Positions 8,349-56,603 of a DNA stretch of 64,000 nt are shown piece after piece. Within the stretch, counting starts at the first letter, position 1, and every line of letters starts with the position of its first letter. The notes under the pieces are model-generated. The model had not been told where the DNA came from, ran no database searches, and saw only the letters and a list, made by a program, of their open reading frames with translations. Source of the stretch: Verrucomicrobia bacterium CG1_02_43_26 (GTDB taxonomy: Bacteria > Verrucomicrobiota > Verrucomicrobiia > Opitutales > CG1-02-43-26); NCBI GenBank assembly GCA_001872735.1, contig MNWT01000005.1, positions 205,312-269,311 of the forward strand. Reading direction: 5' to 3'. Made by a program: the position numbers and the translations under genes.

Positions 8349-8442
8349 CTTTTCTAGGGAAGATTAAATAATAAGCTGGAAATCTTTACTAGTGCCAGCT
8401 AGTATAAAAAATAAGGCTCCCAAAATTCCCCACTTTCCCCAA

Positions 8443-10499: not shown

Positions 10500-10513
10500 G
10501 CAGCTATTTTTCG

Positions 10514-10999: not shown

Positions 11000-11099
11000 A
11001 ATTGATCCATCTGTTAGGGGTTTTTCAGGGGTATTGGTTTGCCATTGAGGCCCACAGAACTAGATTGTATTTTCAAACGGTATTATGTAAAGTCTCTTT

Positions 11100-12185: not shown

Positions 12186-12250
12186 TTCGGCACGATTGCT
12201 TTGACAGTCAAATAAATCATTGTTAATCTTTCTTGAAAACAAGATTAACA

Positions 12251-13147: not shown

Positions 13148-13184
13148 ACGGCTGCTCTTTTTGAAATCATTCTGAGAAACTAAA

Positions 13185-13340
13185 TCACTCAGCAGGCTTT
13201 GTCTTACGAAGCCCCATAACGGAGTTCCCCTCAGACCACTGTCCACGCTCTTTTAAGAGCTTAATGCGGTCAAAACGTTTAAGCACGGTCTTCTTCTTTC
13301 CTGAACCGCCTCCTTGATTAAAACTTCTGTGTCGTGACAT
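13185..13340 (-). CDS. Small basic protein (51 aa)
   Basis: Manual translation gives MSRHRSFNQGGGSGKKKTVLKRFDRIKLLKERGQWSEGNSVMGLRKTKPAE. It is below the ORF-track length cut-off. It resembles the conserved 'small basic protein' family as I remember it (KRFxRxxLLxxRGQW...GLxKTKP). Confidence 0.6.
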   Translation of the reverse strand: MSRHRSFNQGGGSGKKKTVLKRFDRIKLLKERGQWSEGNSVMGLRKTKPAE

Positions 13341-13452
13341 AATAAATCTTCCTACAATTAAAATTTCAAATTTCTAGTAAAAGGAATAACCTTCCTGCGG
13401 TCAAGTATAAATCAATTTATTTCTAATATATTCCCTAAAACGAAGGATTTTT

Positions 13453-14589: not shown

Positions 14590-14638
14590 GCAATAGAGTT
14601 TAATCTTAAGTTCGGCCTATAAGCAAGCCACATATTTT

Positions 14639-15457: not shown

Positions 15458-17646
15458 AAATCGTCATTTTACAAGATTACTTACGTTGCGGGGGCACGGA
15501 AAAACAAAGCGTCTTCCTGGTAAACCATTTAAATGAAGCTGGCTATGATGCCCTGCTAATCACACTCAGACCGGGTGGCCTACTCTGGGATGAGGTCAAA
15601 GATGAAAAGGTTTTTTCCTTACAAAAAGGGGATACCGGTTTCGATTGGTATGCTCCGAGATTATTTAAAACCATCAAAAAACTCTCACCGGATATCGTTA
15701 TCTGCATGGGGCGGATCGCAAACATGTATGGCAGCTTTGTGCAAAACCGTTTCCCTAAGCTTCATGTTATCAGCACATTGCGTACAGGAAAAAAGCTTTC
15801 TTGCCTCTACAAACGTTCTCTTAAAACGTCTAAAAGCATTTTAACGAATTGCCAATGGTGGAAAAACGACTTACTGAAACGTGGGTTTAATTCGAATAAA
15901 ATTGAGGTGATTCCCAATCCCATCGTTCTGTCGCAATCCATTTCTTTCTCAAGTGAAGATCGCTTAGAGCAGCGAAAAAAATTTGGAGCTAGTGAAGACA
16001 CTATCATTTTTATCTGCGTACAAGGGTTTCGCCCAGGCAAAAACCACGCAAAGCTCATTGAACATTTTGCTAAATTAGACAGAAAAGCAAATTGGCAGCT
16101 ATGGCTAGTGGGCGAAGGGGAGCAAAAAAGGGCCTGCGAGGTGATCGTCAACCAACTCGGCTTAGGAGACAAAATTCACTTCATGGGTTTTCAAAAGAAT
16201 CCTGCCCCGTATTACCAGGCTGCAGACGTTGCCGTTTCCACGTCTAAAGAAGACGCTTTCCCTAATTTCATCATAGAAGCGCAATCCCTCGGGCTGCCGA
16301 TTATCGCAGTCGATACGGTGGGCGTGCAGGAGGCTTTTATCCCGAACCAATCGGGTTTTCTGGTCTCCCATGATCGTCCTGAGGAATTCGTAAAATATCT
16401 GGAGCTCTTTTTGCAAAGCCCAAATCAAATTCAAAAAATGGGCGAAGTCGGTCGCATATATGCACAAGACCACTTTTCTCCTGATGTTATTAAAAAGCAA
16501 ATCGACCAATACTTCGAAATGCGCACCAAAAAGCATAAGGGTCGAGTCATCGTACTGGCCAGATGGCTCACCTATGGAGATGGCGTTTCCATTGATGCCT
16601 TGGGCACATATTATTCTTTGATAGACGCAGGGTATGATGCTCACATTTATGCAAACGAACGTCATTCTTCTTTGAAGCATGAGCCCATTAAAAGTTTTAA
16701 AGTGCTTCAAAAGCTGCCACTCACCGAAGACGACATTCTCATCTACCACTTCACTTCGGGATGGAACGAGGGCATAGCGTTTCTTAGGAAAACGCCTTGT
16801 AAGAAGGTGCTTCGCTATCATAACGTCACGCCCGCGGAGTTTTTTGAAGGCTATAGCGAAAGCCACACCAAGCGGTGCCGTGAGGGTCGCGCATTCTTGT
16901 CTGAACTATGCAAAATAGACTGGTATAGGGCTTGTACCCCATCTAACTACAATGCTAATGAGTTAATTAGCCACGGCCTAGATCCAAAAATCACACAAAC
17001 ACTGATCTCCTTCACGCCTGTAGACAGCTTGGTATCTCATATTAAAACAAGCTCAGATCCTCAGGAAAAATACCTCCCGGGTACACCGGTTAATATCCTT
17101 TCTGTCGGGCGAATATCGCCTCAAAAGAATCATGCAGATCTTATCCGCGCGTTCGCCTTTTATCATAAAGAGCATAATCCCAATAGCCAACTAACCCTTT
17201 TTGGGAAGCAAAATCGCTATCTCAAAAAATATGTGGAGGACTTAAATAACCTCGCCAAGGAACTAGAAGTAGACCATGCCTTGATCTGGATCAATGGCGG
17301 TTCAGACAATGTACTCCATCACGCCTACCAAAAAGCGCATATTTTTGCCAAAACGAGCAAACATGAAGGCCTTTGCGTCCCTTTAATTGAAGCAATGGCC
17401 GAACAAGTCCCCATAGTCGCCTTTGCCTATGCAGCCGTCCCAGAAACAGTAGGTGGCGCAGGGATGATCATCCCTGATAATGACCCTCATAAAATGGCAG
17501 AAGCCTTTCACCGCATCATAAATGACGAACATGAAAGGGCTATTCTTCTCAAAAACGCAGCTCTTCGCTATCAAGAGCACTTTCAGTCTTCTGCGATTAA
17601 GCTCCAATTCCTACAATTTATAAATAGCTTATCTCCAAATAGATGA
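15454..17646 (+). CDS. Fused tandem glycosyltransferase (two GT4 modules in one 730-aa protein)
   Basis: Two separate EX7E-type motifs, EDAFPNFIIEAQSLGLPII at about residue 265 and HEGLCVPLIEAMAEQVPIV at about residue 640. Each is preceded by a Rossmann-like half. The ATGA overlap with the SDR stop suggests translational coupling. Confidence 0.8.
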   Translation: MKIVILQDYLRCGGTEKQSVFLVNHLNEAGYDALLITLRPGGLLWDEVKDEKVFSLQKGDTGFDWYAPRLFKTIKKLSPDIVICMGRIANMYGSFVQNRFPKLHVISTLRTGKKLSCLYKRSLKTSKSILTNCQWWKNDLLKRGFNSNKIEVIPNPIVLSQSISFSSEDRLEQRKKFGASEDTIIFICVQGFRPGKNHAKLIEHFAKLDRKANWQLWLVGEGEQKRACEVIVNQLGLGDKIHFMGFQKNPAPYYQAADVAVSTSKEDAFPNFIIEAQSLGLPIIAVDTVGVQEAFIPNQSGFLVSHDRPEEFVKYLELFLQSPNQIQKMGEVGRIYAQDHFSPDVIKKQIDQYFEMRTKKHKGRVIVLARWLTYGDGVSIDALGTYYSLIDAGYDAHIYANERHSSLKHEPIKSFKVLQKLPLTEDDILIYHFTSGWNEGIAFLRKTPCKKVLRYHNVTPAEFFEGYSESHTKRCREGRAFLSELCKIDWYRACTPSNYNANELISHGLDPKITQTLISFTPVDSLVSHIKTSSDPQEKYLPGTPVNILSVGRISPQKNHADLIRAFAFYHKEHNPNSQLTLFGKQNRYLKKYVEDLNNLAKELEVDHALIWINGGSDNVLHHAYQKAHIFAKTSKHEGLCVPLIEAMAEQVPIVAFAYAAVPETVGGAGMIIPDNDPHKMAEAFHRIINDEHERAILLKNAALRYQEHFQSSAIKLQFLQFINSLSPNR

Positions 17647-35440: not shown

Positions 35441-35788
35441 ATGGATAATTCCAAATCAAAAAAGGGTTTTACCCTCGTTGAAATCATGATTGTCGTGGTC
35501 ATCATCGGTCTATTAGCCGCCATGGCCATTCCAGCATTCCAAAAAGTACGTCAAGAATCTCGTGAAAAAGCTATCACGAATAACTTGCGACAAGTGGCTT
35601 CAGCTGGTGCTCAATTCATATTGGACACTGGTGCCTCGCAAGTAGCTTATACTGCATTGACCCCAACATACTTCAATACGATCGCAGCTGTTGCTGGTGA
35701 ATCGTACACAGGTATCTCGGTTGATGAAGACGGTGGAACACTGACTGTAACCACAACCGGTGGTCAGTCTGTTTCATTTACGTACTAA
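35441..35788 (+). CDS. Prepilin-type N-terminal cleavage/methylation domain protein (type IV pilin or pseudopilin-like)
   Basis: MDNSKSKKG|FTLVEIMIVVVIIGLLAAMAIPAF is a class III signal with Gly-1, Phe+1 and Glu+5. It has a short 115-aa body and a Thr/Gly-rich C-terminus (GGTLTVTTTGGQSVSFTY). Confidence 0.9.
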   Translation: MDNSKSKKGFTLVEIMIVVVIIGLLAAMAIPAFQKVRQESREKAITNNLRQVASAGAQFILDTGASQVAYTALTPTYFNTIAAVAGESYTGISVDEDGGTLTVTTTGGQSVSFTY

Positions 35789-35807
35789 TCTAATTGACGA
35801 CTCTTGT

Positions 35808-35843
35808 AGACCGCTTGCTATAAAAGCGAGCGGTCTTTTTTTT
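35808..35843 (+). terminator. Rho-independent terminator/attenuator after the pilin gene
   Basis: AGACCGCTTGC-TATAAA-AGCGAGCGGTCT stem followed by a T8 run, only 11 nt before the next ATG. Confidence 0.8.
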
Positions 35844-35854
35844 GTTTAAAAATC

Positions 35855-37708
35855 ATGAAAAACTGGAAACCGGTTCTTGCGTTTGCTGTTATTGCAATTA
35901 TATCGCTCGTTGTAGGGCAATGGGCGTTTTCCCCACTTCAAGCCGTTACCTTCGTGAAATATGGGGGTTACTGGATCATGCTCGTCACGGCAGGTCTATT
36001 TTTCTATTTTCTCTATAAATGCCTCCTGCCCTACCTAAAAGATAAGCACTTTCGAACAAAAGCATTCTGGACTGAACCCAAGAACCTCCTCGTCTGCCTA
36101 TTGATTATATTTTGCTTTTTGTACATTCGCCTTCAAGAGAAAGTTGAATACAAAATAGTGATGGATGAACCCGTACTGGTGGCCACATCTATGTCCATGC
36201 ACCAAGATCGCATAGTCCAAGTGCCCAATAGAGCCCATACGATCGCCGGCACCTTTTATATATTGGACGGCTTTGTAGACAAACGCCCCTCTGCCTATCC
36301 CTTTTTTCTCTCCGTTATCCATGATTTTAGCGGTTTTCGCCCTGAAAATGCCTTTTATTTCAACCTCTTTCTCACCGGCTTGTTTCTCTTTTTGACTTAT
36401 CTAGTGGGCTTCAAACTGGCTTCGCGAACAGGAGGTGTGTTTGCCGTCCTATTATTTACCTTTTTACCGCTCTTTGTGCGTGCCTCTAATGGAGCTGGAT
36501 TTGAGGTTTTGAATATAGTCATGATCCTCGGGACTATGCTGATCGGGATGGAATACCTTAAGCGACCGACAAAGACTAACCTCAATGCGCTTTGCTTAAC
36601 CACGGTTATTTTAGCGCAAGTGCGCTATGAAAGCGTCATGTACATTGCGCCGGCTGGCTTGCTCATTCTCTATGCCTGGTGGCGAGAAAAGAAGATTACG
36701 ACCTCCTGGGGATTGATGATCACGCCTATTTTGCTCATCCCCTATCTATGGACGCACAAAGTGTTTGATCTCAACGATGGTCACTGGCAATTATGGGATC
36801 GTTCTTCAGCAACAAGCCCCTTTGGCTTTCAATACGCCTATCAAAACATCGGCCACGCCCTCAATTTCTTCCTTGATGCCGGCCTTGAAATGACAAATTC
36901 TTTGCCGATTGCCATTCTTGCCCTAGCATTTATCCCCTTCTTTATTTTGGTGGTCTACAAGCTCCTGAAGGCCAAAAAGCGCTTCCCGATTCCGCTGATC
37001 GTTCTGTGCTTTTTCTGCCTAGGCTTCGTGATGAATACACTTCTGATCATCTTCTATTTTTTTGGTCAACTGGACGATCCGATCATCCACCGCCTGGCAT
37101 TCCCAATGCTGATCCCTATGGTGTTTATCCCCATCTGGATGATTTACTCCTACACGACAAACCCCGCCTATCGGCAAACGTTTTCCTGGTTTATTTGTCT
37201 AGGGATACTTGTTTTCTGCGTGCCAAAAATTTCTGCTAAACACTATTCTCAGAATCAACTGCCCGTGGATCGCGTCAACTGGATGATCGATATCATCAAA
37301 AACTCGGAAATGGCCGGAAAACACTATTTTGTGCTCTCGGAGACCCCCTTTATATGGATCATGCACCGCGTAGACGCCATGAGCACCGCGTATGCGATAA
37401 AACGCAAGGATCGGGTATTGCATTATTTAAAACAAAAAGGGAACCCACCGGTATATGTTCAGCAGAGTCGGTTGTTAAATGCTCCGACCGGCACATACGT
37501 CTATGACGGCGGCTTCCTGAAGGCTAAAAAGAACTATGACCTCGATAACGATTTTGTACTAGAACCTTACAAAGATGAGCACATCTGGCCATTGAGGCAA
37601 ATTAGGTTCTATAAATTAGTCGATGTTAAAAATACTCCCCCTATGGATCTGCCTCAGCCCACGAACAATAAGGAGTATATGCGGCAGTGGATTGAAACCT
37701 TACCTTAA
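35855..37708 (+). CDS. GT-C fold integral-membrane glycosyltransferase (ArnT/PMT/TfpW-like, polyprenyl-phosphate-sugar dependent)
   Basis: 617 aa with at least 11 predicted TM helices and a soluble C-terminal domain of about 150 aa. An acidic DE motif (IVMDEPVLV, 36164-36169) lies in the first extracytoplasmic loop, as in GT-C enzymes. Confidence 0.7.
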   Translation: MKNWKPVLAFAVIAIISLVVGQWAFSPLQAVTFVKYGGYWIMLVTAGLFFYFLYKCLLPYLKDKHFRTKAFWTEPKNLLVCLLIIFCFLYIRLQEKVEYKIVMDEPVLVATSMSMHQDRIVQVPNRAHTIAGTFYILDGFVDKRPSAYPFFLSVIHDFSGFRPENAFYFNLFLTGLFLFLTYLVGFKLASRTGGVFAVLLFTFLPLFVRASNGAGFEVLNIVMILGTMLIGMEYLKRPTKTNLNALCLTTVILAQVRYESVMYIAPAGLLILYAWWREKKITTSWGLMITPILLIPYLWTHKVFDLNDGHWQLWDRSSATSPFGFQYAYQNIGHALNFFLDAGLEMTNSLPIAILALAFIPFFILVVYKLLKAKKRFPIPLIVLCFFCLGFVMNTLLIIFYFFGQLDDPIIHRLAFPMLIPMVFIPIWMIYSYTTNPAYRQTFSWFICLGILVFCVPKISAKHYSQNQLPVDRVNWMIDIIKNSEMAGKHYFVLSETPFIWIMHRVDAMSTAYAIKRKDRVLHYLKQKGNPPVYVQQSRLLNAPTGTYVYDGGFLKAKKNYDLDNDFVLEPYKDEHIWPLRQIRFYKLVDVKNTPPMDLPQPTNNKEYMRQWIETLP

Positions 37709-37739
37709 GGTGATTTTATTAGCGAGAATCGGATAGAAT

Positions 37740-37771
37740 AAAAAAGGCCCCACATAGTGTGAGGCCTTTTT
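37740..37771. terminator. Bidirectional terminator between convergent genes
   Basis: An A6 run, then the GGCCCCACA-TAG-TGTGAGGCC hairpin with one mismatch, then a T5 run. Confidence 0.7.
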
Positions 37772-37810
37772 GTTGCGAAAAAACAAGTTGATCGCGACTG
37801 TTTATTCAAA

Positions 37811-38206
37811 TTAGAAAAGCTTTCTCTTAAAAGCTGGGTTAGTATTATTCTGTTGGTTGGCTAGATGGGCTTGCCTATTTTCCAGATAAAGGCATTTTGA
37901 ATCTAGGTGCCGGGGTGTCGTTTCTTTGACCCGAGAAATACCGGTTAAATCAGGCTTTGGTGGAGCAAATTTAACAACTGGTTTTTTAACAGTTATCTTT
38001 TTTGTTATTTTCGAAGGTTTAGAGATCTTATTCTTTTGCTCTGTTTCATTAAGGTTTATCTTCAAGTTCTTTTTAAACAACTGGGAAATTTCCTCCTCAG
38101 TAATGTCCTTGATCTTGTCGCCCTTGTTTTCAGATTTATTATCTTTTTTATTCTGGATATTTTGGGAAGGAACATATCCACCACCAATGTTAATTTTATT
38201 ATTCAT
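37811..38206 (-). CDS. Lys/Asn-rich basic hypothetical protein
   Basis: 131-aa ORF in an AT-rich stretch, with no TM helix and no recognised motif. An alternative-frame ORF on the opposite strand makes the coding status less certain. Confidence 0.45.
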   Translation of the reverse strand: MNNKINIGGGYVPSQNIQNKKDNKSENKGDKIKDITEEEISQLFKKNLKINLNETEQKNKISKPSKITKKITVKKPVVKFAPPKPDLTGISRVKETTPRHLDSKCLYLENRQAHLANQQNNTNPAFKRKLF

Positions 38207-38458
38207 ATTTTTATAATAAGTTTACTTTAATTGACTCAATCGATATAAATTTTATACCAATTGAGGTAAATTGCCATAAAATACCTAAAAGAGCAATAGG
38301 AAAAATAAATAATTAACACTAAATTGCTAAATACTTCAAATTAACGGGGTTTTAAATGAAAATAATACAGATTTGGCTAATCTAAAAAACGTTATCCATG
38401 AATTTAATAGCCATCGATTAAACGTTTCTAGCGTAAGTCCTTTTGTAGCTGCAAAAAA

Positions 38459-39148
38459 TCAGCGAAAGAGGTTGTACTTTATGATCGCATAAATGGCACG
38501 GAAACCGTCTTTCCAATTGATTTTCTTGCCCTCTTGGTAGGTTCGCCCGGAATAACCGATACCGACTTCAAAGATGCGGCAGCCGCTTTTGGCTAATTTT
38601 GCGGTGATTTCAGGCTCAAAGCCAAAGCGGTTTTCCTCGAGCTTAATCTTCTGGATGATTTCACGGCGCACCATCTTGTAACACGTCTCCATGTCTGTTA
38701 GATTGATGTTGGTGAGCATGTTTGAGAAAAAGGTCAACAGCTTGTTACCGACCATGTGCCAAAAGAAGACGACCCGGTGGGGTTCTGCGCCGATAAAACG
38801 CGAACCAAAAACGGCATCTGCCTTACCCTCTTTTATCGGTTGGAGTAGTTTTGGGTACTCTTGAGGATCATATTCTAAATCCGCGTCTTGAACAATAATC
38901 ACATCGCCTTTTGCCTGAGCGATACCGGTTCGTAGCGCGGCTCCTTTGCCCTGATTAGTTTCATGGTAAAATTTGCAACAAAGCGGCATATCGATTTCAT
39001 TTTCTAAGATCTCACGCGTACCATCCGTGGAACCATCATCGACAACGATAATTTCCCGTAACGCCACAGGTGCGTTTGCTACGCGTTCCAAGAGCTGTTT
39101 AATCGTATCTTTTTCGTTATAGACGGGGACAACTACAGAAATATTCAT
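38459..39148 (-). CDS. GT2 polyprenol-phosphate glycosyltransferase (Dpm1/GtrB/ArnC-like)
   Basis: [31 protein letters not shown] (DXD) and [12 protein letters not shown] at 39148 is preferred over the track start at 39208. Confidence 0.88.
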
Positions 39149-39271
39149 GCCGAAAAGAGAAGGTGTAAATTCAAACGTAATTATAGAGAGCCACGCAAAG
39201 GAAAGCAATTACTAGATACGACCATATTTGAATTGTCAGCTTAAAAGTAAAATGAATATGATAACGAGATC

Positions 39272-39958
39272 ATGCTTTTTCGGCACAAGCTATTTATCCC
39301 CGGCCTGACTGCCGCCTTAGTCATCACTGCCGGCATTATTCTGTATTATTTTTTTGGCGCTGATTTAGATCCAGTGCGCGCCATTGAACAATTTTCCCGG
39401 CACTTATCGGCATTAGCAAAACTGCACCCTGCTTACTTAATCCTGGCGATCACAATTGCTCCCGCAGTGGGCATACCCGTTAGCCCCCTGTACATCCTTT
39501 CCGGCATTGCCTATGGTACGCAAGCAGGCATCATTTATTCCACAATTGGAGTAGCCCTTAATATTGCGCTTACCTATTGGGTTGCTAGACGATTCTTAAA
39601 CAAATTCATCCAAAGGCTTTTGACTCGCTTTAATTACAAAGTGCCCGAAGTGCCCAAAAAGCATCACTGGAAGATGGTTGTGGCCGTAAGAATCATGCCC
39701 GGGGTACCCCTTCCGGTACAAAATTACATACTTGGGCTAACAGCAATCCCCTTTTGGACGTATTTTACTTTTTCCTGGATCATACAATTCCTCTGGGTAA
39801 TTGGTTATGTAGTAACCGCAGGATCTATCTTCAAAGGGCATATGAAACTAGCTTTATTTGGCATCGCATTTATGATTGGAGTTGCTGTAATCTTACAACT
39901 CGTACGAAAGCGCTATGTCAAACTTAAGAAAGCCCAAATTGAAGACGATGGAGAGTGA
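39272..39958 (+). CDS. TVP38/TMEM64 (DedA-related) family membrane protein
   Basis: Five or six TM helices and the (R)xxPxxPxxxxNY-like motif RIMPGVPLPVQNYILG typical of this family. Confidence 0.75.
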   Translation: MLFRHKLFIPGLTAALVITAGIILYYFFGADLDPVRAIEQFSRHLSALAKLHPAYLILAITIAPAVGIPVSPLYILSGIAYGTQAGIIYSTIGVALNIALTYWVARRFLNKFIQRLLTRFNYKVPEVPKKHHWKMVVAVRIMPGVPLPVQNYILGLTAIPFWTYFTFSWIIQFLWVIGYVVTAGSIFKGHMKLALFGIAFMIGVAVILQLVRKRYVKLKKAQIEDDGE

Positions 39959-43845: not shown

Positions 43846-45048
43846 CTATAAGCTGTCCTGAAATAAGTGGGCAATTTTTTCGGCATTTTTTACCGCGTCA
43901 AAATTCTCCTCCACCCACATGCGTGCTGCCTTAGCAATTTTTTGATAGGTTTGCTGGTCTTGCGCAAGCGTTTCTAGAGCACTTACCCAAGCGTCATCAT
44001 TATCATAATCATTTACAAGAAACCCATTTTCGCCGGTACGGATCACTTCCGGCAAAGCGGAAACGGTAGAAGCCACTACAGGAACTCCCTTAGCCATGGC
44101 TTCACCGACAACATTAGGAAAACCATCACGATCACCCGATTTTGCCACAACACCGGTAAACAAAAAGACATCCGCCCAATCCAGCATACTTTCCGTTTTA
44201 CTGTAACTGAGCCAACCCGGCATCTCAACCGACTGTGCTAAGCCTAGCGTGCGAATCTGGCTAACAAGCTCATCTCGCAAAGGGCCCTCGCCAATAATTT
44301 TAGCCTGAAAGGGAAGGCCCTTTTCTTTTAACGCTTTATAAATGAGCAATTGCCGAGCATAGCCCTTTTTCTCAACCAAGCGACCTACGGAGATAATTCG
44401 CAGCGGCGCATGGGCACCCTCTTCTACGGATTTAATCGACGGCATCGGCATCAAACCGCGTCGGATCATTTTAATTTTATCCGCAGCTATCCCTTTGGAC
44501 ACCATTTCCGTTTTAGCGACTAGCGTTGATGTATGCACAAAAGATGCCTCCTTTGCTTTTTCCGCAAGAAAGGCATCTCCACTGTATTCAAAAACATCAT
44601 ACGCATGTGCTCCCATCGAAAACGGTATATCCGTAAAACATTTGATAACCCAAGCGGCCATTGCGGGCATAGACGCCCATGCGGCATGAATATTCGTGTA
44701 GCCTTTCCGCTTGAAACAATGAGCGTACAGCAGTCCAAAAGCCGCGCCCAGAAGATTTTCACCAAAGTTCTCCCAGCCATGGCGTTTCTTAAAAAATAAG
44801 CGCTTAACAAATGCCCAAACGACAGCTGGCTTCTTAACACTCCAATAAGCCAGCAGAAAAGGAACGAACACCAACCAATATTTAGGAAACAAGCGAACGG
44901 GTTGTTCCTCAAAAGAACGCTCTCCGCCCCACAAGGAATAGATATCAAAATCAATTCCCAGCTCACGCATGCCCCGCACCTCTCGTTGAAGAAAGGTCTC
45001 CGAAGATTTAGGAAAAGTTGTGAAAATATACGCGACTTTTAGCTTCAT
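43846..45048 (-). CDS. Glycosyltransferase family 4
   Basis: EX7E-type motif RDGFPNVVGEAMAKGVPVV and an N-terminal MKLKVAYIFTTFP. The start at 45048 (or 45066) overlaps the 3' end of the upstream GT28 gene. Confidence 0.85.
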   Translation of the reverse strand: MKLKVAYIFTTFPKSSETFLQREVRGMRELGIDFDIYSLWGGERSFEEQPVRLFPKYWLVFVPFLLAYWSVKKPAVVWAFVKRLFFKKRHGWENFGENLLGAAFGLLYAHCFKRKGYTNIHAAWASMPAMAAWVIKCFTDIPFSMGAHAYDVFEYSGDAFLAEKAKEASFVHTSTLVAKTEMVSKGIAADKIKMIRRGLMPMPSIKSVEEGAHAPLRIISVGRLVEKKGYARQLLIYKALKEKGLPFQAKIIGEGPLRDELVSQIRTLGLAQSVEMPGWLSYSKTESMLDWADVFLFTGVVAKSGDRDGFPNVVGEAMAKGVPVVASTVSALPEVIRTGENGFLVNDYDNDDAWVSALETLAQDQQTYQKIAKAARMWVEENFDAVKNAEKIAHLFQDSL

Positions 45049-46225
45049 TGGCGGCTTCGTTTGCAAAACTCATTAACTTCCCAAAAAAGGCTTCAGGAGT
45101 GGGCTCGGCTTCCTTTAAGTCTCTAAAATTTTTCAACAACGCCTGGTAATCACTTCCCTTATCCTTCCAGGCTTCTATCAAGCGATCAAACTGCTTTATC
45201 GATGAAAAGATACGCGTTGCGTTATTCTTTTTGAAAAATTTAACGGTCACTTTCTCTTGGGGCATCATGCCGTTTAAGCGATTAAAAATAATCGGCGTGC
45301 CCAGAAAAAGGCATTTAGCAGCGGTGTTCCCCCCGCCTTTAGCAATCACAATATCGCTCGCTTGTATTAATTGACGCACCCTGGAGGAATGACCTTCTAA
45401 AAATAGTTCAAAATCGGAATGCTCTTGTTTCCATTTAGAAACTCGCTGGAAAGTGCTTTGGCTGCGACCACACACAACAACCGCTTGCACGGATTTCTTA
45501 TACTTATAGAGAACATTTAATAAAGGAAGGTGGTTATTCGCGCCGTTGCCACCTGTTGTCAAAAAAACGGTAAATTTTTCTCGGTCTAACCCAAGTTCAT
45601 TTTGCCGATAATCTTTCTTTCCATCCTCTTGCAATCGGTCTTCATGAACGCGAGGAGCAAATAAGCCTAAATATACACTGGAGCGTTCTTTAGGCGCGCC
45701 CAGTTTAAGGGCAAATTTTTGTGCCATGGCCGTTCTAGAGATATACCAGTCGGAAGATGAATTTACCCAGTTTATGCTAAAGCCGAATCCTCCGGAAAAT
45801 TCCCCACAATAGGTGACACATTTCACATGATCTTTTCCAAGAATTTTTCGAGCTAACTCAAAATAGCCTAGATTTAAGAAATCGTGGACGCTGATAATCA
45901 AGTGCGGCTTGAAGTCGCGAATCAATCCCTCAAAATATTTTTTCCCAACTAATATATTCCATCGCGCTAACTGCCCTACTATTTCTATAATAAACCAATA
46001 AATATAGTGCACAAAAGGGGCGTAGCGTTGAATAAAATTGTAAAAATCTACGCCGAAGTTACCGGTTGAAGACGCGTTTTCTAAAAAGTGCTCCACTTTA
46101 ACGTCCACGGCCTCACCATATAACTTCTGAAACCAATCACGCATTGCGTAAGCACGCGCATCATGCCCACTCCCGGTACTCGAAGTCAGGATCAAGACAC
46201 GTCTTGCTATTGGCTTGCTGTCCAC
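45008..46225 (-). CDS. MGDG-synthase/UgtP-like diacylglycerol glycosyltransferase (GT28 family)
   Basis: N-terminal VLILTSSTGSGHDARAYA, typical of the monogalactosyldiacylglycerol-synthase-like family, and a C-terminal GT-B half (KGGGNTAAKCLFLGTP). Confidence 0.75.
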   Translation of the reverse strand: MDSKPIARRVLILTSSTGSGHDARAYAMRDWFQKLYGEAVDVKVEHFLENASSTGNFGVDFYNFIQRYAPFVHYIYWFIIEIVGQLARWNILVGKKYFEGLIRDFKPHLIISVHDFLNLGYFELARKILGKDHVKCVTYCGEFSGGFGFSINWVNSSSDWYISRTAMAQKFALKLGAPKERSSVYLGLFAPRVHEDRLQEDGKKDYRQNELGLDREKFTVFLTTGGNGANNHLPLLNVLYKYKKSVQAVVVCGRSQSTFQRVSKWKQEHSDFELFLEGHSSRVRQLIQASDIVIAKGGGNTAAKCLFLGTPIIFNRLNGMMPQEKVTVKFFKKNNATRIFSSIKQFDRLIEAWKDKGSDYQALLKNFRDLKEAEPTPEAFFGKLMSFANEAANEAKSRVYFHNFS

Positions 46226-46233
46226 GATCCCAT

Positions 46234-47499
46234 TTAGCCGTTATATTGGCCAAAAATCAACCCAACATTCGCGCCGCCAAAGCCACTACTGTTAGCTAAA
46301 ACATAGCGAGGCGCCTTATCTTGGGTTTCTGTTATCACGTTGTAAGGCTTTGCCCTTTCGTCTAATTCTTCAATATTAGCGGATCCGGGAATAAATTTTT
46401 CTTTAATCGCTAACAAACTGAAGGCAGACTCCATGATACTCGCCAAGGATAGGCCATGTCCCGTCAATGCCTTAGTGCTACTAATAGCGGGTTGGTACTT
46501 TGCGTGAGGGAATATACCTTCAATTGCTTGCAATTCGGCTATATCACCAGGGAAAGTTCCTGTAGCGTGGGCATTAATGTAGTCTATATCTTTAGGATCT
46601 ACTCCGGAATACTTGAGTGCGTTGCTCATAGCATCATGCAGACCCTTTCCTTCAGGGTCCGGTTTAGCCGGGTGATAACCATCTGTGCCTTGGCCCCAGC
46701 CCATCATTTCGGCGTAAACATTGGCTCCTCTTGCCTTCGCAAGGCTCTCTTCTTCTAAAATGGCAACAACTGCGCCTCCGGTACCCACAAAACCGTCTCT
46801 ATTCTTATCAAAAGGACGTGATGCTTTATCCGGATTGGTTGAGGTGCTCAATACCCGCATAGACGCAAAAGGTAAAATATTAACGAGGGTACAATCTTCT
46901 CCCCCTACAACAATCATCCGATCTTGAAAACCTTGCTTAATTTGGTCGTATGCATGTCCTAATGCGTGGCCGGAAGAAGCACAAGCGGATGCAAATCCGA
47001 CGGACGAGCCGCGTATATGGTAACTTGCTGTTAAATTAAAGTTTAATGTGCCTACGATTCCTCCAATCATACTTGTTGGCGAACAACGCATCACACCTTT
47101 CTCAAACATTTTCCCGAGATGATTCCACATAACGTACGTGGAGCCAGAAGATGCCGTATATAAGCCAGTACGGGGGTTAGAAATCTCCTCTTCAGTCAAA
47201 CCGGCTTCTTTGAGCGCTTGGTTCATCGCATAATAAGAATAAAATACGTGAGGAGATAAACCACGCATCACGCTAAGAGGCAGTTTTAAATCGGGTGGGC
47301 CCGTCCAATCCTCCGGCTGAATCGAGCTTGTATTAAAACCCTTAATGGTTGCAGCCAATTTTACCGGTATATTATCTTTTTGAAATTCGGGAAACAGCTC
47401 TATGCCATGTCTTAATTCACGTAAATTCTTAAGTACGGTACCTTTATCATTACCAATACTGGTTACAAACCCTAATCCTGTTACAACAACCCGCCTCAT
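46234..47499 (-). CDS. Beta-ketoacyl-ACP synthase (KAS I/II type)
   Basis: Active-site Cys (ACASSGHAL) and the two His motifs (NAHATGT and LTGHGLS). C-terminal GFGGANV. Confidence 0.9.
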   Translation of the reverse strand: MRRVVVTGLGFVTSIGNDKGTVLKNLRELRHGIELFPEFQKDNIPVKLAATIKGFNTSSIQPEDWTGPPDLKLPLSVMRGLSPHVFYSYYAMNQALKEAGLTEEEISNPRTGLYTASSGSTYVMWNHLGKMFEKGVMRCSPTSMIGGIVGTLNFNLTASYHIRGSSVGFASACASSGHALGHAYDQIKQGFQDRMIVVGGEDCTLVNILPFASMRVLSTSTNPDKASRPFDKNRDGFVGTGGAVVAILEEESLAKARGANVYAEMMGWGQGTDGYHPAKPDPEGKGLHDAMSNALKYSGVDPKDIDYINAHATGTFPGDIAELQAIEGIFPHAKYQPAISSTKALTGHGLSLASIMESAFSLLAIKEKFIPGSANIEELDERAKPYNVITETQDKAPRYVLANSSGFGGANVGLIFGQYNG

Positions 47500-47500
47500 G

Positions 47501-47950
47501 TTACTTCAAAAAATCAAATGCTAATGTCAACCCCTCAACAGAGAGCACCTTCTCTCCATCCTTCCTAATATAACCATCAAAACGCATTAAAGGAGGACGT
47601 ACTCGTTTCAATTGTATTCTCATCTCTAATAAATCCCCTGGGCGACATACATTATGGCAGCTCAAGCGATCTGATGAGGTAAACATGACTCGTTTATTAT
47701 CCACCGGCATCGTTAATTCCGGTTGTTTTGTCGTCAATAAAAAGAGAACCGCAAGTTGCCCCAACGCTTCCATCATAATAGAAGCAGGGAATATCGGTTC
47801 CTCCTTAAAATGACCTTTTAAAAAATCTTCGCTTCCGGTAACTTGATAAAGCCCCGAAGCAGTCTTTTCCTCTAACGTAGCGCTATCTAAGAATAAAAAT
47901 GGCTCCTGATGGGGCAAAATAGATCGAATACGCGCTCTGTCCATTTCCAT
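47501..47950 (-). CDS. FabZ/FabA-like 3-hydroxyacyl-ACP dehydratase (hot-dog fold)
   Basis: ILPHQEPFLFLD and GHFKEEPIFPASIMMEALGQ motifs. 1-nt gap to the KAS gene. Confidence 0.85.
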   Translation of the reverse strand: MEMDRARIRSILPHQEPFLFLDSATLEEKTASGLYQVTGSEDFLKGHFKEEPIFPASIMMEALGQLAVLFLLTTKQPELTMPVDNKRVMFTSSDRLSCHNVCRPGDLLEMRIQLKRVRPPLMRFDGYIRKDGEKVLSVEGLTLAFDFLK

Positions 47951-47958
47951 AAAGCACT

Positions 47959-48339
47959 TTACGCTGACCCCTTAATTTTCTGGCTAATATAATCCTTCAC
48001 ATCTTTAACGGATTGCAGGCCACGAAGTTCTTCATCAGGAATGGATAATTTCAAAGTCTCTTCGATTGTCATCACAATTTCGACCATTATCAGAGAATCT
48101 ACCCCTAGGTCATCAATCATGCGAAGATCGTCGCAATCTTCTACTTGCAGCTTGGATCGCATTTCCGGCTCTAAAAATCGCTCAATGATGCCTAGAACTA
48201 TCTTAGGCGCCTCCTTAGGGTCTCGTGTCCGGCGATAATGCACAGCAGCTTCTATAATCTCGGGTCTGCAACGTTTGAGAGATTCCCTTAAATCAGCCTC
48301 AGCTTCAGGCGTAAAAGTGTTATCAGAAATAGAACTCAT
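47959..48339 (-). CDS. Acyl carrier protein with an N-terminal extension of about 45 aa
   Basis: Phosphopantetheine attachment motif DDLGVDSLIMVEIV in the C-terminal half. It is the first gene of the ACP, dehydratase, KAS, GT28, GT4 string. Confidence 0.8.
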   Translation of the reverse strand: MSSISDNTFTPEAEADLRESLKRCRPEIIEAAVHYRRTRDPKEAPKIVLGIIERFLEPEMRSKLQVEDCDDLRMIDDLGVDSLIMVEIVMTIEETLKLSIPDEELRGLQSVKDVKDYISQKIKGSA

Positions 48340-53112: not shown

Positions 53113-53187
53113 GCTCCCGTAGTTCAATGGATAGAACGTTGGCCTCCGAAGCTGAAAATCTGGGTTCGAGTCCCGGCGGGAGCACCA
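53113..53187 (+). tRNA. trnR: tRNA-Arg (anticodon CCG)
   Basis: GCTCCCGTAGTTCAATGGATAGAACGTTGGCCTCCGAAGCTGAAAATCTGGGTTCGAGTCCCGGCGGGAGCACCA. The acceptor stem GCTCCCG/CGGGAGC pairs perfectly, the anticodon loop is CT-CCG-AA, and CCA is encoded. Confidence 0.9.
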
Positions 53188-53604
53188 TTAGCCGAATAGC
53201 CAACAGAACCCCACGGCGTAAACAAAGCCTAAGAGCAACCCCGCCGCCACCTCCAGTGGCTTGTGCCCAATAGATTCTCTTAACGGCTTGTCCTCTCCCC
53301 CCAGTTTCCCAAAAGTCAGTTTATTCAGCACACTGGCCTGTTTACCTATATTCTTACGTAAACTCAACGCATCCATCACAACAATAAACAGCATCGTAGC
53401 TGCGATGCCCGCCATCGGCGTATTAAAGCCATCTTTTAGCCCTATGTAGAAAAAGATCGATCCGACAATTGCGCTATGGTTACTGGGCATCCCCCCATAG
53501 CCAATATATTTCCAAGCGAGCTCCTTGTATTTAATGGTATTAATCGAAAATTTTACTATGCCTGTCAAAAACCAGGCCACTAAGGGGATTAACCAATAAT
53601 ACAT
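53188..53604 (-). CDS. Divergent PAP2-family membrane phosphatase (DUF212-type)
   Basis: GGMPSNHSA motif characteristic of the divergent PAP2 family and four TM helices. The stop codon abuts the 3' end of tRNA-Arg. Confidence 0.75.
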   Translation of the reverse strand: MYYWLIPLVAWFLTGIVKFSINTIKYKELAWKYIGYGGMPSNHSAIVGSIFFYIGLKDGFNTPMAGIAATMLFIVVMDALSLRKNIGKQASVLNKLTFGKLGGEDKPLRESIGHKPLEVAAGLLLGFVYAVGFCWLFG

Positions 53605-53616
53605 AATCGCTTTCTC

Positions 53617-54489
53617 CTAATATAACGTTGTTGATAAATTAAACCACTCGATCACAAAATAAGACACTAACCACAGGGCAATCGCCACCTGCATTTTCCA
53701 ATCTTTCATTAAGATCACTTCCGGCTCCTCTCCTTTTTCTAACACCATTACCAGTCGCTTGTAATGGGCAATCGCAAAAAATACAATAGGTATTGTGATG
53801 ATCAACAGGCTACTTTTATCCGATTCTATCGTAAACAGGGCATAGGATATAATGGCCATGTTAGCCGTTCCATTTAACAGAGATCTTAAGAAGGGCATGG
53901 AATAATAATCCAACACAGGCCGTTGATCGAATTTCTTTGTATTGCACAGCTCTGAATACCGTTTTGCGAATACCAAAAACAGCGCCAGGAAGAAAGTACA
54001 CACTAATATCCAAGCTGTCGGGAATTGGCCGATAACGTATATACCGGCTAACAAACGAAAGATAAAACCAAAGGCAATAGACATGCAGTCTACAATCGCC
54101 CAGTGTTTTAGCCAAAAAGTGTATAGAATATTATTGAGCGCATACAAAAGCACAGCCCAAAACACAACCGATCCCAAATAACACGCTCCCCATATAGAGA
54201 GCCCAAACAAAACAATGCCTAATCCTAATGCGTTAGGGACAGGAACCGCCCCTCGCGCAATCGGCCTAAATTGCTTTTTAGGGTGCGCTCTATCTTTTTC
54301 ACGGTCAATAATATCGTTTAACACATAGAGCGATGACGATAGCCCGCAGAACACAATGAACAAGAAGGTGCTCAACACCCAAGCGTTTAGATTCTCTAGA
54401 CCTCTAATACCAAAGAACAAACCGGCATAGCAAAATAAATTCTTGCTCCACTGCTGTGGCCTGAGGAGGATTATGTAATCTTTTATCAT
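53617..54489 (-). CDS. UbiA-superfamily prenyltransferase, polyprenyl-phosphate phosphoribosyltransferase-like (DPPR-synthase-like)
   Basis: LNDIIDREKDRAHPKKQFRPIARG (NDxxDxxxD followed by HPxKxxRPIAxG) and 8-9 TM helices. The motif resembles decaprenyl-phosphate phosphoribosyltransferase as I recall it. Confidence 0.7.
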   Translation of the reverse strand: MIKDYIILLRPQQWSKNLFCYAGLFFGIRGLENLNAWVLSTFLFIVFCGLSSSLYVLNDIIDREKDRAHPKKQFRPIARGAVPVPNALGLGIVLFGLSIWGACYLGSVVFWAVLLYALNNILYTFWLKHWAIVDCMSIAFGFIFRLLAGIYVIGQFPTAWILVCTFFLALFLVFAKRYSELCNTKKFDQRPVLDYYSMPFLRSLLNGTANMAIISYALFTIESDKSSLLIITIPIVFFAIAHYKRLVMVLEKGEEPEVILMKDWKMQVAIALWLVSYFVIEWFNLSTTLY

Positions 54490-54495
54490 GCTTCG

Positions 54496-55524
54496 TTAAG
54501 ATATTTTCTTTAATAGCCCCAAAATTTTCTGCTTAACCACGCTTCTATGCGGGCTCTTGCCTGTCGTCTCAAACACTTCTTGGGGGTGTTCTAAAAACCA
54601 GTCATAGCTTTCTCGCAACATCCGCTCATTGGAATAGGCTGGCTTCCAACCCATGTACAACAAGGGTTTTACGTCAAAATAAAAGGGCTTATGATAGGTT
54701 AGGTAATGCCAGGGTGCTAATGGAGACATATTAATCACATCAAGCAGCTTAAGCGCCCCCATAGCCAGGCAAGTTGGAATGCTCACGATGGTGGAAGTGG
54801 ATTTCGCGTACTGGATCAAGTTTGCCAGATCTCCTCGCAGTGAGCCGTATTCTGCCGCCCCCACGTTATAAATCCCTGGTTGTTCTTTGGATAGCGCCAA
54901 CATGTAAAAATCCATTAAATCATGCGCGTGCACAAATTGGAAACCGCCTGTTCCCGGGCCTATGATATAGATTTTTCTATTATCGCGTATCCAATCAAAC
55001 AGGATCTCGAAAATGCCCAGTCTGCCTTCCCCTAAAATGGTGCGCGGGCGAATTACGATTAAGGGCAGGTTATTTTTCTCACAAATTTCTCGCACGGCAA
55101 GCTCTCCGGCCAATTTGCCTTTGCCGTAAATTTCCACGGGGCGGTAAGGGGTGTCATTCGTCACGGGGCAAACGTTGGGGGCACCAAAAATCGCACTGGA
55201 ACTCGTATGTATGAAGGCCTTTACCTTACTTTCCACAGCAACCTCGGCGGCTATACGTGTTCCGTTAACATTTACATCCCAAAATTTGTCTCCAGATTTG
55301 GTCAAGGGAACGAGGGCCACGGTGTGGTGAACGATGTCTATCCCCTCCATCGCTTTTTTTACGCCCGCTCTATTTCTTATATCGCATTCAATGTACTCGA
55401 TTTCAGCAGGTCGATCTTTGTCTTCCCAGACATCCAAGACGCGTACCTGCTCGCCCTTTTCAAGCAAACGCTTAGCAATCAAATTACCTAAAAAACCGGA
55501 ACCGCCTGTTACCAAATGTCGCAT
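54496..55524 (-). CDS. NAD-dependent epimerase/dehydratase (extended SDR)
   Basis: VTGGSGFLG Rossmann motif and catalytic YGKGKLAGE (YxxxK). ATG at 55524 is preferred. Confidence 0.85.
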   Translation of the reverse strand: MRHLVTGGSGFLGNLIAKRLLEKGEQVRVLDVWEDKDRPAEIEYIECDIRNRAGVKKAMEGIDIVHHTVALVPLTKSGDKFWDVNVNGTRIAAEVAVESKVKAFIHTSSSAIFGAPNVCPVTNDTPYRPVEIYGKGKLAGELAVREICEKNNLPLIVIRPRTILGEGRLGIFEILFDWIRDNRKIYIIGPGTGGFQFVHAHDLMDFYMLALSKEQPGIYNVGAAEYGSLRGDLANLIQYAKSTSTIVSIPTCLAMGALKLLDVINMSPLAPWHYLTYHKPFYFDVKPLLYMGWKPAYSNERMLRESYDWFLEHPQEVFETTGKSPHRSVVKQKILGLLKKIS

Positions 55525-55528
55525 TATA

Positions 55529-56603
55529 TTACTGGAAGGTAGAAGCAAATTGCCCGCTATCTTGCATCCATTTCAAGCTACGGCGCATCCCTTCTTTCAA
55601 ATCAACCTTAGGTGCGTAGCCGAGTTCCTTTTTGGCTTTTTCGACAGAGCAGGCTATATTTTTGTTCATTTCTGATAACACATGTATCTTTTGATGGTAA
55701 AGGCCAACTGTTTGCAGTAACCGATCAACCATCAGCGCCACTTCGCTGGCTACCCCAGGCAATCGCATGCGTTTGTGCGCGCAGGTCTGCCCAAACTCTT
55801 TCTCCAAAAGGTTTTCAACGGTATCGACAATCTCGTTCATCGTATAAGGTCGCTCATCTGCGATCCAATAAATCTGACCGTTCGCTTTTTCACTCAAAGC
55901 AGCCAAGATAAGGCCTTGGCAGAGGTTTTCAATATAAGACATCGAGCGTAGGTTGTCGCCTGATCCCACAATGGGTGCCTTACCATCGCATATCATTTTA
56001 AAAAACAAGGACTGCCTTTGAGGTTGATAGGGGCCATAAAACCAGGTTCCTCTTACAATAACCGTCTCTAGCTTTCCTGCTTTCTGAACCCCAATGATGT
56101 ACTCTTCCATCTCCCGCTTTGCGCGACCGTAATGCATATACGGACGATACGGTGCGTTTTCATCAAATAAACACGTTTTATTCGAATTGCAGCCTACAGG
56201 GGAATTAGATGACATTGTCACCACGCGTTTCAATTTACACTTTTCCGCCGCCTTGTGGATATTTTTTGTGCATTCCACGTTCACGGTATAGAGATCTTGT
56301 ATGCGCTTTGGGTGAATTAACCCCGCCAGATGGAATAAAATGCTCCCCTCTGCGCCAGAGCAAAAAAGCTCACAATCATCCTTATCCCTTAAGTCGCCAT
56401 AAAAATACTCCACCTGAGGGAAATTTCTCCTTCAAGGCATCTACCTTTAAACCACGCTCAATAAAGGCACGTATCTTCAAATCTTTATTGAGCCCGCTTA
56501 AGGACTCCACTTCTGGGATTCCGTTAACGAGGGCATTCAGCAAACCATGCCCCAGCCAGCCAGACGCTCCCGTCACTAACACTAAATTATTGGGGAAATT
56601 CAT
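55529..56603 (-). pseudogene. NAD-dependent epimerase/dehydratase interrupted by a single-nucleotide frameshift
   Basis: ORF 56382-56603 carries the Rossmann N-terminus (LVTGASGWLGHG). ORF 55529-56413 carries the remainder, including YGRAKREME (YxxxK). The frames overlap at 56384-56431. Removing one base from the A3T3C3 run (56418-56426) restores ...KEKFPQVEYFYGDLRD... Confidence 0.75.

Follow-up and report, generated by a model that had tools for sequence, protein, structure and literature searches.

Two short-chain dehydrogenase genes, a UbiA-type phosphoribosyltransferase gene and a DUF212 gene in a groundwater verrucomicrobium: a candidate lipid-linked pentofuranose cassette and its relatives in several phyla

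The four-gene cassette and its phosphoribosyltransferase

We analyzed a stretch of 64,000 nucleotides from Verrucomicrobia bacterium CG1_02_43_26 (contig MNWT01000005.1, positions 205,312 to 269,311), referred to below as the window, in which a cassette of four co-directional genes lies on the minus strand between positions 53188 and 56603. In the direction of transcription, it comprises two genes for short-chain dehydrogenases/reductases (SDR1 and SDR2), a gene of the UbiA superfamily and a gene of the DUF212 family, and it probably encodes a pathway for a lipid-linked pentofuranose with which surface molecules would be decorated. An earlier note on this DNA, made from the sequence alone, had described four packed minus-strand genes with gaps of 4, 6 and 12 nt, forming an operon that ends at a tRNA-Arg gene. 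We recovered the same coordinates and the same spacing (12, 6 and 4 nt, going upward from the 53188 side), and the stop codon of the last gene abuts tRNA-Arg(CCG) on the opposite strand. The four genes are indeed co-directional, but the operon is not intact: what had been taken for a single SDR gene at 55529-56603 lies in two frames, of 73 and 294 codons, separated by a frameshift. The features of the locus are the following:

53113-53187, plus strand, convergent: tRNA-Arg(CCG), the 3′ boundary of the cassette (ARAGORN; Rfam tRNA, 63.8 bits)
53188-53604, minus strand: DUF212 protein, 138 aa, last gene of the cassette
53617-54489, minus strand: UbiA-superfamily protein of the PPPRS/DPPRS type, 290 aa
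54496-55524, minus strand: SDR2, an intact extended SDR of 342 aa, counted from the ATG that is also used by the sibling annotations
55529-56603, minus strand: SDR1 region, first gene of the cassette, split by a frameshift
55529-56413, minus strand: C-terminal 294 codons of SDR1, the catalytic part with SSNS...YGRAK, in a different frame from the N-terminus
56382-56603, minus strand: N-terminal 73 codons of SDR1, which include the Rossmann motif TGASGWLG and run up to a premature TAA
56415-56417, minus strand: site of the SDR1 frameshift, from DNA alignments to the sibling loci L085-L088
56604-56787, minus strand: upstream intergenic region of 184 nt, presumed from gene layout alone to be the promoter region

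A scan for promoters and terminators between 52900 and 57500 yielded counts no better than those obtained from shuffled sequences and thus gives no evidence on the boundaries of the operon. When we scanned with Rfam, including for a phosphoribosyl pyrophosphate (PRPP) riboswitch upstream of the cassette, the tRNA was the sole element found.

The UbiA-superfamily protein (Pfam UbiA, E=9e-24) is very likely a PRPP-using polyprenyl-phosphate 5-phosphoribosyltransferase, as judged from its profile matches, ligand residues and modeled fold. The earlier note had pointed to a string resembling the signature of such phosphoribosyltransferases (PRTases) and had assigned the protein to the type of the mycobacterial Rv3806c. 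The protein does contain this string, NDIIDREKDRAHPKKQFRPIARG. The four best NCBIfam matches are all PRTase models, three of them for decaprenyl-phosphate phosphoribosyltransferase (NF008977, 198.9 bits; NF008978, 183.7 bits; NF008976, 128 bits) and one for a HAD-UbiA fusion (NF006088, 147.9 bits), while the best prenyltransferase model did not exceed 53 bits (heme o synthase 44, UbiA 23, MqnP 18). Against the PDB, Rv3806c (8j8j) was the sole strong sequence match, over the full length of the protein (E=2e-31). In Rv3806c, Mg2+ and the ribose are bound by N73 and D77 of the NDxxDxxxD motif, the pyrophosphate by R22, K87, R90, K143 and Y138, and the 5′-phosphate by K28 and Y70, the last two of which are not conserved in UbiA prenyltransferases (PMC10994848). 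The window protein has the identical residue at 11 of the 14 positions that bind PRPP, Mg or the 5′-phosphate (R22, K28, Y70, N73, D74, D77, D81, K87, R90, Y138 and K143), with R22, K28, Y70, N73, D77, K87, R90, Y138 and K143 corresponding to R10, K16, Y55, N58, D62, K72, R75, Y123 and K128 of the window protein. As for the remaining three, Q135 is replaced by N, Y157 is replaced by F as in some mycobacteria, and K208 is unaligned. Across the clade of the window protein the ligand positions, including K28 and Y70, are invariant or nearly so. When an AlphaFold2 model built with 26 homologues (pLDDT 93) was searched with Foldseek, it fitted 8j8j with a TM-score of 0.86 (rmsd 2.7 Å) and 8j8k with 0.83, whereas prenyltransferases reached at most 0.76, the value obtained for AfUbiA, the UbiA homologue of Archaeoglobus.

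Membership in Pfam UbiA and the JGI automatic annotation of the homologues ('4-hydroxybenzoate polyprenyltransferase') could suggest an ordinary aromatic prenyltransferase of quinone or heme synthesis (UbiA, MenA or CyoE) in a coincidental neighborhood, an identity that is extremely improbable and effectively refuted by the profile scores (44, 23 and 18 bits against 199), by the 5′-phosphate and pyrophosphate ligands, which are conserved here unlike in UbiA prenyltransferases (PMC10994848), and by a fold nearer to 8j8j than to any prenyltransferase. The profile scores and the fold thus favor the PRTases over the quinone and heme prenyltransferases, a grouping with which the earlier note had allowed that its assignment would fall.

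The DUF212 protein and the two dehydrogenases

The last gene of the cassette had been read as encoding a PAP2-type phosphatase. Its 138-aa product does belong to a family that Pfam names 'Divergent PAP2 family' (PF02681, DUF212, E=9e-33), but it is not a classical PAP2 protein (PF01569) and, judging from profile alignment, not an orthologue of Rv3807c, because one motif alone aligns. A DUF212 gene stands immediately behind a gene for a PRTase-type UbiA in two other, unrelated places, a Pirellula metagenome-assembled genome (MAG; locus L079) and a Marivivens plasmid (locus L093), and the Marivivens protein was the best of seven plasmid matches to the window protein, with 45% identity. In these three PRTase-adjacent proteins K17, P39-S40-x-H42 (P39-S40-N-H42 in the window), D77, R82 and H113-x3-E117 are invariant; these residues are divergent versions, reminiscent of the PAP2 motifs KxxxxxxRP, PSGH and SRxxxxxHxxxD. 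The structure search found no solved relative of the family. We consider the DUF212 protein a likely candidate for the polyprenyl-phospho-ribose 5′-phosphatase, in which role it would be a non-orthologous stand-in for the HAD and PAP2 phosphatases.

Both dehydrogenases match Pfam Epimerase and 3Beta_HSD (PF01370/PF01073) and are extended SDRs of a GalE/3β-HSD-like kind, of 342 aa in SDR2 and 357 aa in intact SDR1. For SDR2 the two matches have E=2e-38 and E=4e-27, with a marginal N-terminal match to adh_short (E=7e-4). The motifs are TGGSGFLG, TSSS and YGKGK in SDR2, and TGASGWLG, SSNS and YGRAK in SDR1. Each protein begins at its Rossmann motif and hence has no signal peptide, so that both would be cytoplasmic. 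The nearest solved relatives of SDR2 are 8rdg, NSDHL (6jkg) and GalE, and the nearest characterized relatives of SDR1 are dTDP-glucose dehydratases and WbpP, all with scores far under the family cut-offs. The catalytic Ser/Thr of RmlB-type 4,6-dehydratases is followed by an Asp-Glu pair. This pair is absent from SDR1 (SSNSPVG), and we rejected a 4,6-dehydratase function for it although its best PDB matches are dTDP-glucose dehydratases. The earlier note had assigned the two SDRs to steps like those of DprE1 and DprE2. However, both are extended SDRs, and neither resembles DprE2, a classical SDR, in its family matches; no DprE2 model was among the NCBIfam matches listed for either protein.

The frameshift in SDR1 was located by comparison with four sibling assemblies (L085-L088), which together with the window represent a groundwater MAG population (CG1_02_43_26 / CG_4_10_14_3_um_filter_43_23). 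The siblings have the same gene order and 99.7% identity to the window over 4.4 kb. At the shift the window reads CCCTCAGGTGGAG, with one additional nucleotide, where the siblings read CCCCGGGTGGAA and encode an intact SDR1 of 357 aa. The frameshift is probably a real strain variant, since public assemblies contain each of the two alleles repeatedly, with the 73-aa fragment in 13 contigs and the intact protein in 14+3 contigs. When the window was compared with one sibling, 13 of the 14 differences over 4.4 kb were found inside SDR1 (window 55529-56603, L085 10001-11074), and SDR2, the UbiA gene and the DUF212 gene were without differences save for one substitution in UbiA. The differences in SDR1 are nearly all synonymous, the exceptions being the 1-nt insertion and E74K; 3′ of the shift, one of 11 substitutions is non-synonymous. 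Thus SDR1 was kept by purifying selection until recent times. SDR1 is at the same time a hotspot of strain divergence, which suggests a recent inactivation or a recombined segment.

Relatives of the cassette across phyla

UbiA homologues with 40-53% identity to the window protein are spread over Oscillatoriales cyanobacteria, Planctomycetota, Verrucomicrobiales, Brocadiaceae and a variety of MAGs. We clustered the open reading frames (ORFs) of 80 genome loci. In the subclade of the window protein, members are usually flanked by orthologues of both SDRs, with 56-64% identity for SDR1 and 40-65% for SDR2, and the alignment of the SDR1 family has a mean column identity of 68%. The two SDRs lie beside a PRTase-type UbiA in Planktothrix, Lyngbya, Microcoleaceae, Singulisphaera and other Planctomycetota, in Verrucomicrobiales and in unclassified MAGs. 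At least 21 independent loci, spread over several phyla, repeat the order SDR1-SDR2-UbiA, and the reverse search described below meets it again, which is more than chance.

Other genes accompany this core. Among the 80 loci, an FAD-dependent GMC oxidoreductase is encoded beside SDR1 in 23, a protein of 119-125 aa precedes the GMC gene in 18, and a small transporter (Multi_Drug_Res/EamA), which is a candidate flippase, is found beside UbiA in 26. Related loci also carry HAD hydrolases, separate or fused, and large polytopic membrane proteins with 9-14 predicted transmembrane segments. SDR1 of the window is 62-63% identical to the SDR beside the GMC oxidoreductases in two cyanobacterial loci, where the 119-125-aa protein is a separate gene (L001, 8899-9258; L003, 1137-1505). 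By contrast, GMC oxidoreductases of about 610-620 aa from Pedosphaera and other Verrucomicrobiota (P0361, P0400, P0353, P0333 and P0388) are N-terminal fusions with this protein. The occurrence of fused and separate forms, a Rosetta-stone pattern, suggests that the GMC oxidoreductase and its small partner form a single enzyme. Two loci, L042 and L094, lack the GMC gene as the window does, and there a GT-C glycosyltransferase of the PMT_2 type is encoded beside or inside the SDR1-SDR2-UbiA unit.

In a reverse search that started from SDR1, counted on loci of at least 10 kb (n=34), SDR2 was present in 33, the GMC oxidoreductase in 26 and a PRTase-type UbiA in 20. SDR1 and SDR2 are therefore an obligate pair that is often, though not exclusively, linked to a PRTase. 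Four metagenome loci (L116, L142, L149 and L162) have the pair directly followed by a gene for apolipoprotein N-acyltransferase (Lnt), with neither a PRTase nor a GMC gene within 9 kb.

A full version of the cassette lies on pNGR234a, the symbiosis plasmid of Sinorhizobium fredii NGR234, in the y4n cluster around y4nJ (locus L091; NC_000914.2, 299625-307690). It encodes an SDR2-like protein (41% identity), an SMR transporter, a small protein, the GMC oxidoreductase y4nJ, a 658-aa membrane protein, an SDR1-like protein (48% identity) and a 489-aa HAD-UbiA fusion. As the PRTase is fused to a HAD domain on pNGR234a and stands alone elsewhere, the SDR pair travels with two PRTase subtypes. The window shares with y4nG-y4nM and with the cyanobacterial and planctomycete clusters both SDR orthologues and a PRTase-type UbiA. 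These clusters add the GMC oxidoreductase, its 119-125-aa partner, an SMR transporter, a polytopic membrane protein of 550-780 aa and a HAD phosphatase (fused to UbiA in NGR234), whereas the window holds a four-gene core with DUF212. These clusters appear uncharacterized, as full-text searches of the literature with the names of the y4n genes gave nothing relevant. Symbiosis plasmids of Mesorhizobium and Rhizobium carry GMC homologues of similar identity.

The frequency of the GMC gene bears on the absence of an FAD-dependent oxidase from the window. As the earlier note had stated, the operon has no DprE1 homologue, and across the window from about 5.4 to 64 kb neither an FAD_binding_4 protein nor a GMC protein was found by Pfam annotation of identical sibling contigs or by our own scans. 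A tblastn search of the window with GMC probes was negative, and the FAD-binding oxidoreductase that is encoded next to DPPRS in Tsukamurella (GlcD-like), used as a DprE1 probe, had no match. In a GMC profile search, no protein from Crystal Geyser Verrucomicrobia was among the best 120 of more than 4,500 matches. The note had proposed from this absence an all-SDR route, and loci without a GMC gene (L042 and L094) do exist. However, most relatives pair SDR1 with the FAD-dependent GMC oxidoreductase, which weakens the argument from the lack of an FAD enzyme. The GMC oxidoreductase is not homologous to DprE1; it could be analogous to it.

A candidate pentofuranose pathway and its alternatives

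Gram-negative bacteria make undecaprenyl-phosphate-linked ribofuranose (Ribf) with a PRP-PPPRS fusion, after which an ArnEF-like transporter flips the donor and a GT-C adds the sugar (Kelly et al. 2024, PMC11127046). In Citrobacter youngae O1/O2 the parts are ORF15 (PRP-PPPRS), ORF13 (SDR epimerase), ORF14 (ArnEF-like flippase) and ORF12 (GT-C/GT136), and ORF13 of the O2 strain is a single GalE-like SDR with TGxxGxxG and YxxxK that converts the Ribf donor to its C3 epimer, xylofuranose (Xylf), its loss yielding a Ribf-decorated glycan (PMC11127046). Arabinofuranose (Araf) systems use homologues of DprE1 and DprE2, and further pentofuranose systems in unknown glycans were predicted (PMC11127046). 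The novelty that the earlier note attached to such a pathway outside Actinobacteria was thus overstated, PRTase-based pentofuranose systems having already been described there (PMC11127046). Its more general proposal, a lipid-linked pentofuranose obtained through epimerization by SDRs, has gained a published precedent in ORF13, while its arabinose-specific, DprE-like version is not borne out, since the SDRs are not DprE2-like and the precedent makes a C3 epimer.

The window resembles the C. youngae system in several respects. It encodes a PRTase of the UbiA type that is very likely PRPP-dependent and agrees in its NDxxDxxxD and R/E loop residues, a candidate for a dedicated 5′-phosphatase, and cytoplasmic GalE-like SDRs, with TGxxGxxG and YxxxK, that would change the pentose; its relatives carry the SMR/EamA small transporter and a GT-C. 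It differs in that the phosphatase candidate is a separate DUF212 membrane protein instead of a fused HAD domain, in that two co-conserved extended SDRs replace one, most relatives adding the GMC oxidoreductase and its small partner, and in that the cassette lies outside an O-antigen locus with no flippase or GT-C gene adjacent. Marivivens sp. JLT3646 carries on its plasmid (L093, 127153-129939) an EamA transporter, a GT4 glycosyltransferase, a PRTase and a divergent PAP2 protein in a row, after a 740-aa hypothetical protein and within a GDP-mannose/glycosyltransferase polysaccharide locus; this is apparently a three-component system free of an epimerase (for ribofuranose, perhaps) that uses DUF212.

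With the mycobacterial pathway (Rv3806c, Rv3807c and DprE1/DprE2) the cassette shares a homologous first enzyme, which is 29-32% identical and agrees in ligand residues and in fold, as well as a logic of PRPP transfer, 5′-dephosphorylation and redox epimerization of a lipid-linked ribofuranose. The window, however, has no DprE1 (FAD_binding_4) gene and no Emb/Aft arabinosyltransferases, has extended SDRs in place of the classical SDR DprE2 and DUF212 in place of an Rv3807c-type PAP2, and its lipid is presumably C55 and not C50. Pseudomonas aeruginosa PA7/Pa5196 (PsPA7_6245-6249 and TfpW) offers a Gram-negative likeness, a PRTase-based pentofuranose donor pathway whose genes are unlinked to a GT-C immediately downstream of the pilin gene, but there the pathway uses, besides homologues of Rv3806c and Rv3807c, true homologues of DprE1/DprE2 and a GtrA-like protein.

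Taken together, the cassette probably encodes a pathway at the cytoplasmic face of the membrane for a polyprenyl-phosphate-linked pentofuranose donor, and among the three-component pentofuranose systems (Kelly et al. 2024) it is best read as a minimal, partly decayed member of an uncharacterized branch. Given the synteny across phyla, the DUF212 and SDR genes plausibly act in the same pathway as the PRTase. In the first and well supported step, the UbiA-type enzyme would move 5-phosphoribose from PRPP onto polyprenyl phosphate, presumably undecaprenyl phosphate. In the second, which the recurrent adjacency and the PAP2-like motifs suggest, DUF212 would strip the 5′-phosphate in place of the HAD or Rv3807c-type phosphatases. 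In the third, to which the tight co-occurrence across phyla points, the two SDRs would oxidize and reduce the lipid-linked ribofuranose at C2 and/or C3 in an NAD(P)-dependent manner, giving Araf, Xylf or the double epimer. We lean somewhat toward the view that a lipid-linked pentose is indeed what the SDRs modify. The donor would then be flipped and used by a periplasmic GT-C. Because SDR1 is frameshifted in this strain, the third step is probably truncated or altered here, the siblings being intact.

A number of observations weigh against this proposal. SDR1 is a pseudogene in the window, and no flippase is encoded beside the cassette. The large membrane proteins associated with the cassette elsewhere had no phmmer match to the ORFs of the 64-kb window or to each other. 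About 40% of the SDR1-SDR2 pairs (14/34) have no PRTase within 9 kb, several of them lying beside Lnt. The UbiA protein scores under the NCBIfam equivalog cut-offs (198.9 against 234 bits for NF008977; 183.7 against 207 for NF008978), which is why we class it as PRTase-type and do not call it an equivalog of the decaprenyl-specific enzyme. As for DUF212, its hhalign alignment with the Rv3807c homologue of Tsukamurella is confined to a stretch of 17 columns at the motif H-x-P-x-[DE]-V-x-x-G (E=0.057), a single-sequence AlphaFold2 model had a pLDDT of 57, too poor for use, and literature searches on the function of DUF212/YuiD found nothing relevant and no characterized member. In addition, no ORF of the window is similar to the cassette-associated SMR proteins.

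Several other products or substrates can be considered. The cassette could make polyprenyl-phosphate Xylf, with SDR2 alone inverting C3, or plain Ribf in the frameshifted strain, by analogy with C. youngae O2 and O1, where ORF13 acts by itself and its loss leaves a Ribf glycan (PMC11127046). SDR2 carries the ORF13-type motifs and has GalE-type relatives, and SDR1 is inactivated while SDR2, UbiA and DUF212 match those of the sibling save for one UbiA substitution. We nevertheless regard this as unlikely, since the near-obligate co-occurrence of the two SDRs argues that SDR2 does not normally work alone, and with one non-synonymous change among 11 substitutions SDR1 was under selection until recently. 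With a similarly low probability, we suggest that the SDR pair, with the GMC oxidoreductase and its partner in most lineages, may be a widespread tailoring module that turns polyprenyl-phosphate ribofuranose into a pentofuranose undocumented in bacterial glycans, such as D-lyxofuranose formed by inversion of C2 and C3 or a keto-pentofuranose, DUF212 being the 5′-phosphatase.

The earlier note had further proposed that the product is the donor for a GT-C encoded at 35855, downstream of a prepilin-like gene (35441-35788). The region 35441-39958 holds this N_methyl prepilin-like gene, the 617-aa GT-C-like protein, a 131-aa low-complexity protein, a 229-aa GT2 glycosyltransferase and a VTT/DedA protein. 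The GT-C has about 10 transmembrane segments and hundreds of homologues of about 622 aa in Opitutae and other Verrucomicrobia, about half of which match PMT_2. In both of the two other Verrucomicrobia loci that we examined the pilin and GT-C genes form a pair, followed by further PMT_2 proteins, and in the closer of the two (L090) the 229-aa GT2 and the VTT gene known from the window come after the pair as well. This module is far more widespread than the cassette and looks like a lineage-wide unit for the glycosylation of a pilin or pseudopilin, with its own candidate polyprenyl-phosphate-sugar synthase in the GT2 at 38459. We found no co-occurrence of the module with the cassette. In view of the module's own GT2 and its distribution, the proposed donor role for the GT-C at 35855 is unsupported. 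It is conceivable even so, since in P. aeruginosa an unlinked donor cluster serves a GT-C directly downstream of pilA in the D-Araf glycosylation of pilin.

This layout is part of the case for a DprE1-independent synthesis of polyprenyl-phosphate D-Araf, in which one SDR would oxidize C2′ and the other would reduce the 2′-keto intermediate, with the product feeding the GT-C at 35855. The obligate pairing of the SDRs (33/34) fits an oxidase/reductase couple, cassettes without a GMC gene exist (the window, L042 and L094), and the window has the same succession of pilin and GT-C genes as P. aeruginosa, whose GT-C downstream of pilA uses D-Araf from an unlinked cluster. However, neither SDR is DprE2-like and none of the NCBIfam matches listed is a DprE2 model; nothing favors C2 over C3, the only characterized SDR of such systems giving the C3 epimer Xylf; an FAD-dependent GMC oxidoreductase stands beside SDR1 in most relatives; the pilin-GT-C module is conserved in Verrucomicrobia with its own GT2 and lies 15 kb from the cassette; and SDR1 is broken in the window. 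We hold this route to be unlikely.

We think it quite unlikely that the substrate of the SDRs, and of the GMC oxidoreductase in the relatives, is another lipid, such as a polyprenol, a hopanoid-like or isoprenoid alcohol or another polyprenyl-phosphate sugar, in which case they would be no more than loosely associated with the PRTase and the cassette would not be a single pathway. The family resemblance of the SDRs is best to the lipid-acting HpnA, OleD, SdmB and 3β-HSD/NSDHL, GMC enzymes include sterol oxidases, and the long SDR1 loci without a nearby PRTase, including those beside Lnt, would fit such a role. The family matches, however, are far under the cut-offs (99 against 368 bits for HpnA), the SDR pair occurs with two PRTase subtypes and interleaved with flippase-like and GT-C-like genes, and the spacing of 4-6 nt suggests co-translation with the PRTase gene.

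Two further regions of the window concern glycans and lipids. Positions 8392-17646 form a separate glycan-synthesis region, with a PseB/Polysacc_synt_2-like SDR, a NeuB-type nonulosonic acid synthase, an EamA transporter, a GT1 glycosyltransferase, a classical adh_short SDR and a 730-aa double GT4/GT1 protein. On the minus strand, positions 43846-48339 encode an acyl carrier protein (PP-binding), a FabA-like dehydratase with a weak ApeI-like match, a ketoacyl synthase and two proteins of about 405 aa without a Pfam match, and may be a specialized lipid or aryl-polyene-like locus.

The window cassette by itself, a reduced copy from an uncultured groundwater bacterium in which one gene is broken, is a lead and not a discovery. 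Of the new observations, two are the most useful: the module of the SDR pair, with or without the GMC oxidoreductase, that spans phyla and rhizobial symbiosis plasmids, and the recurrent pairing of a PRTase with DUF212. Lipid-linked pentofuranose donors derived from PRPP were long regarded as peculiar to mycobacteria, in whose cell wall they are drug targets, and have lately been shown to be a general bacterial strategy. The cassette and its relatives point to a further, uncharacterized branch of this strategy, marked by a pair of extended SDRs, joined or not by a GMC flavoprotein, and by a candidate phosphatase of the DUF212 family. Groups of ecological importance carry this branch, as do symbiosis plasmids of rhizobia. 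If the tailoring module does make an undocumented pentofuranose, with DUF212 as the 5′-phosphatase, this would be the first function for the DUF212 family and would imply a new lipid-linked donor in Verrucomicrobia, filamentous cyanobacteria, planctomycetes and rhizobial symbiosis plasmids. More generally, the possible gains from working out the branch are a function for a DUF family, a surface glycan that is perhaps relevant to symbiosis and enzymes for glycoengineering.

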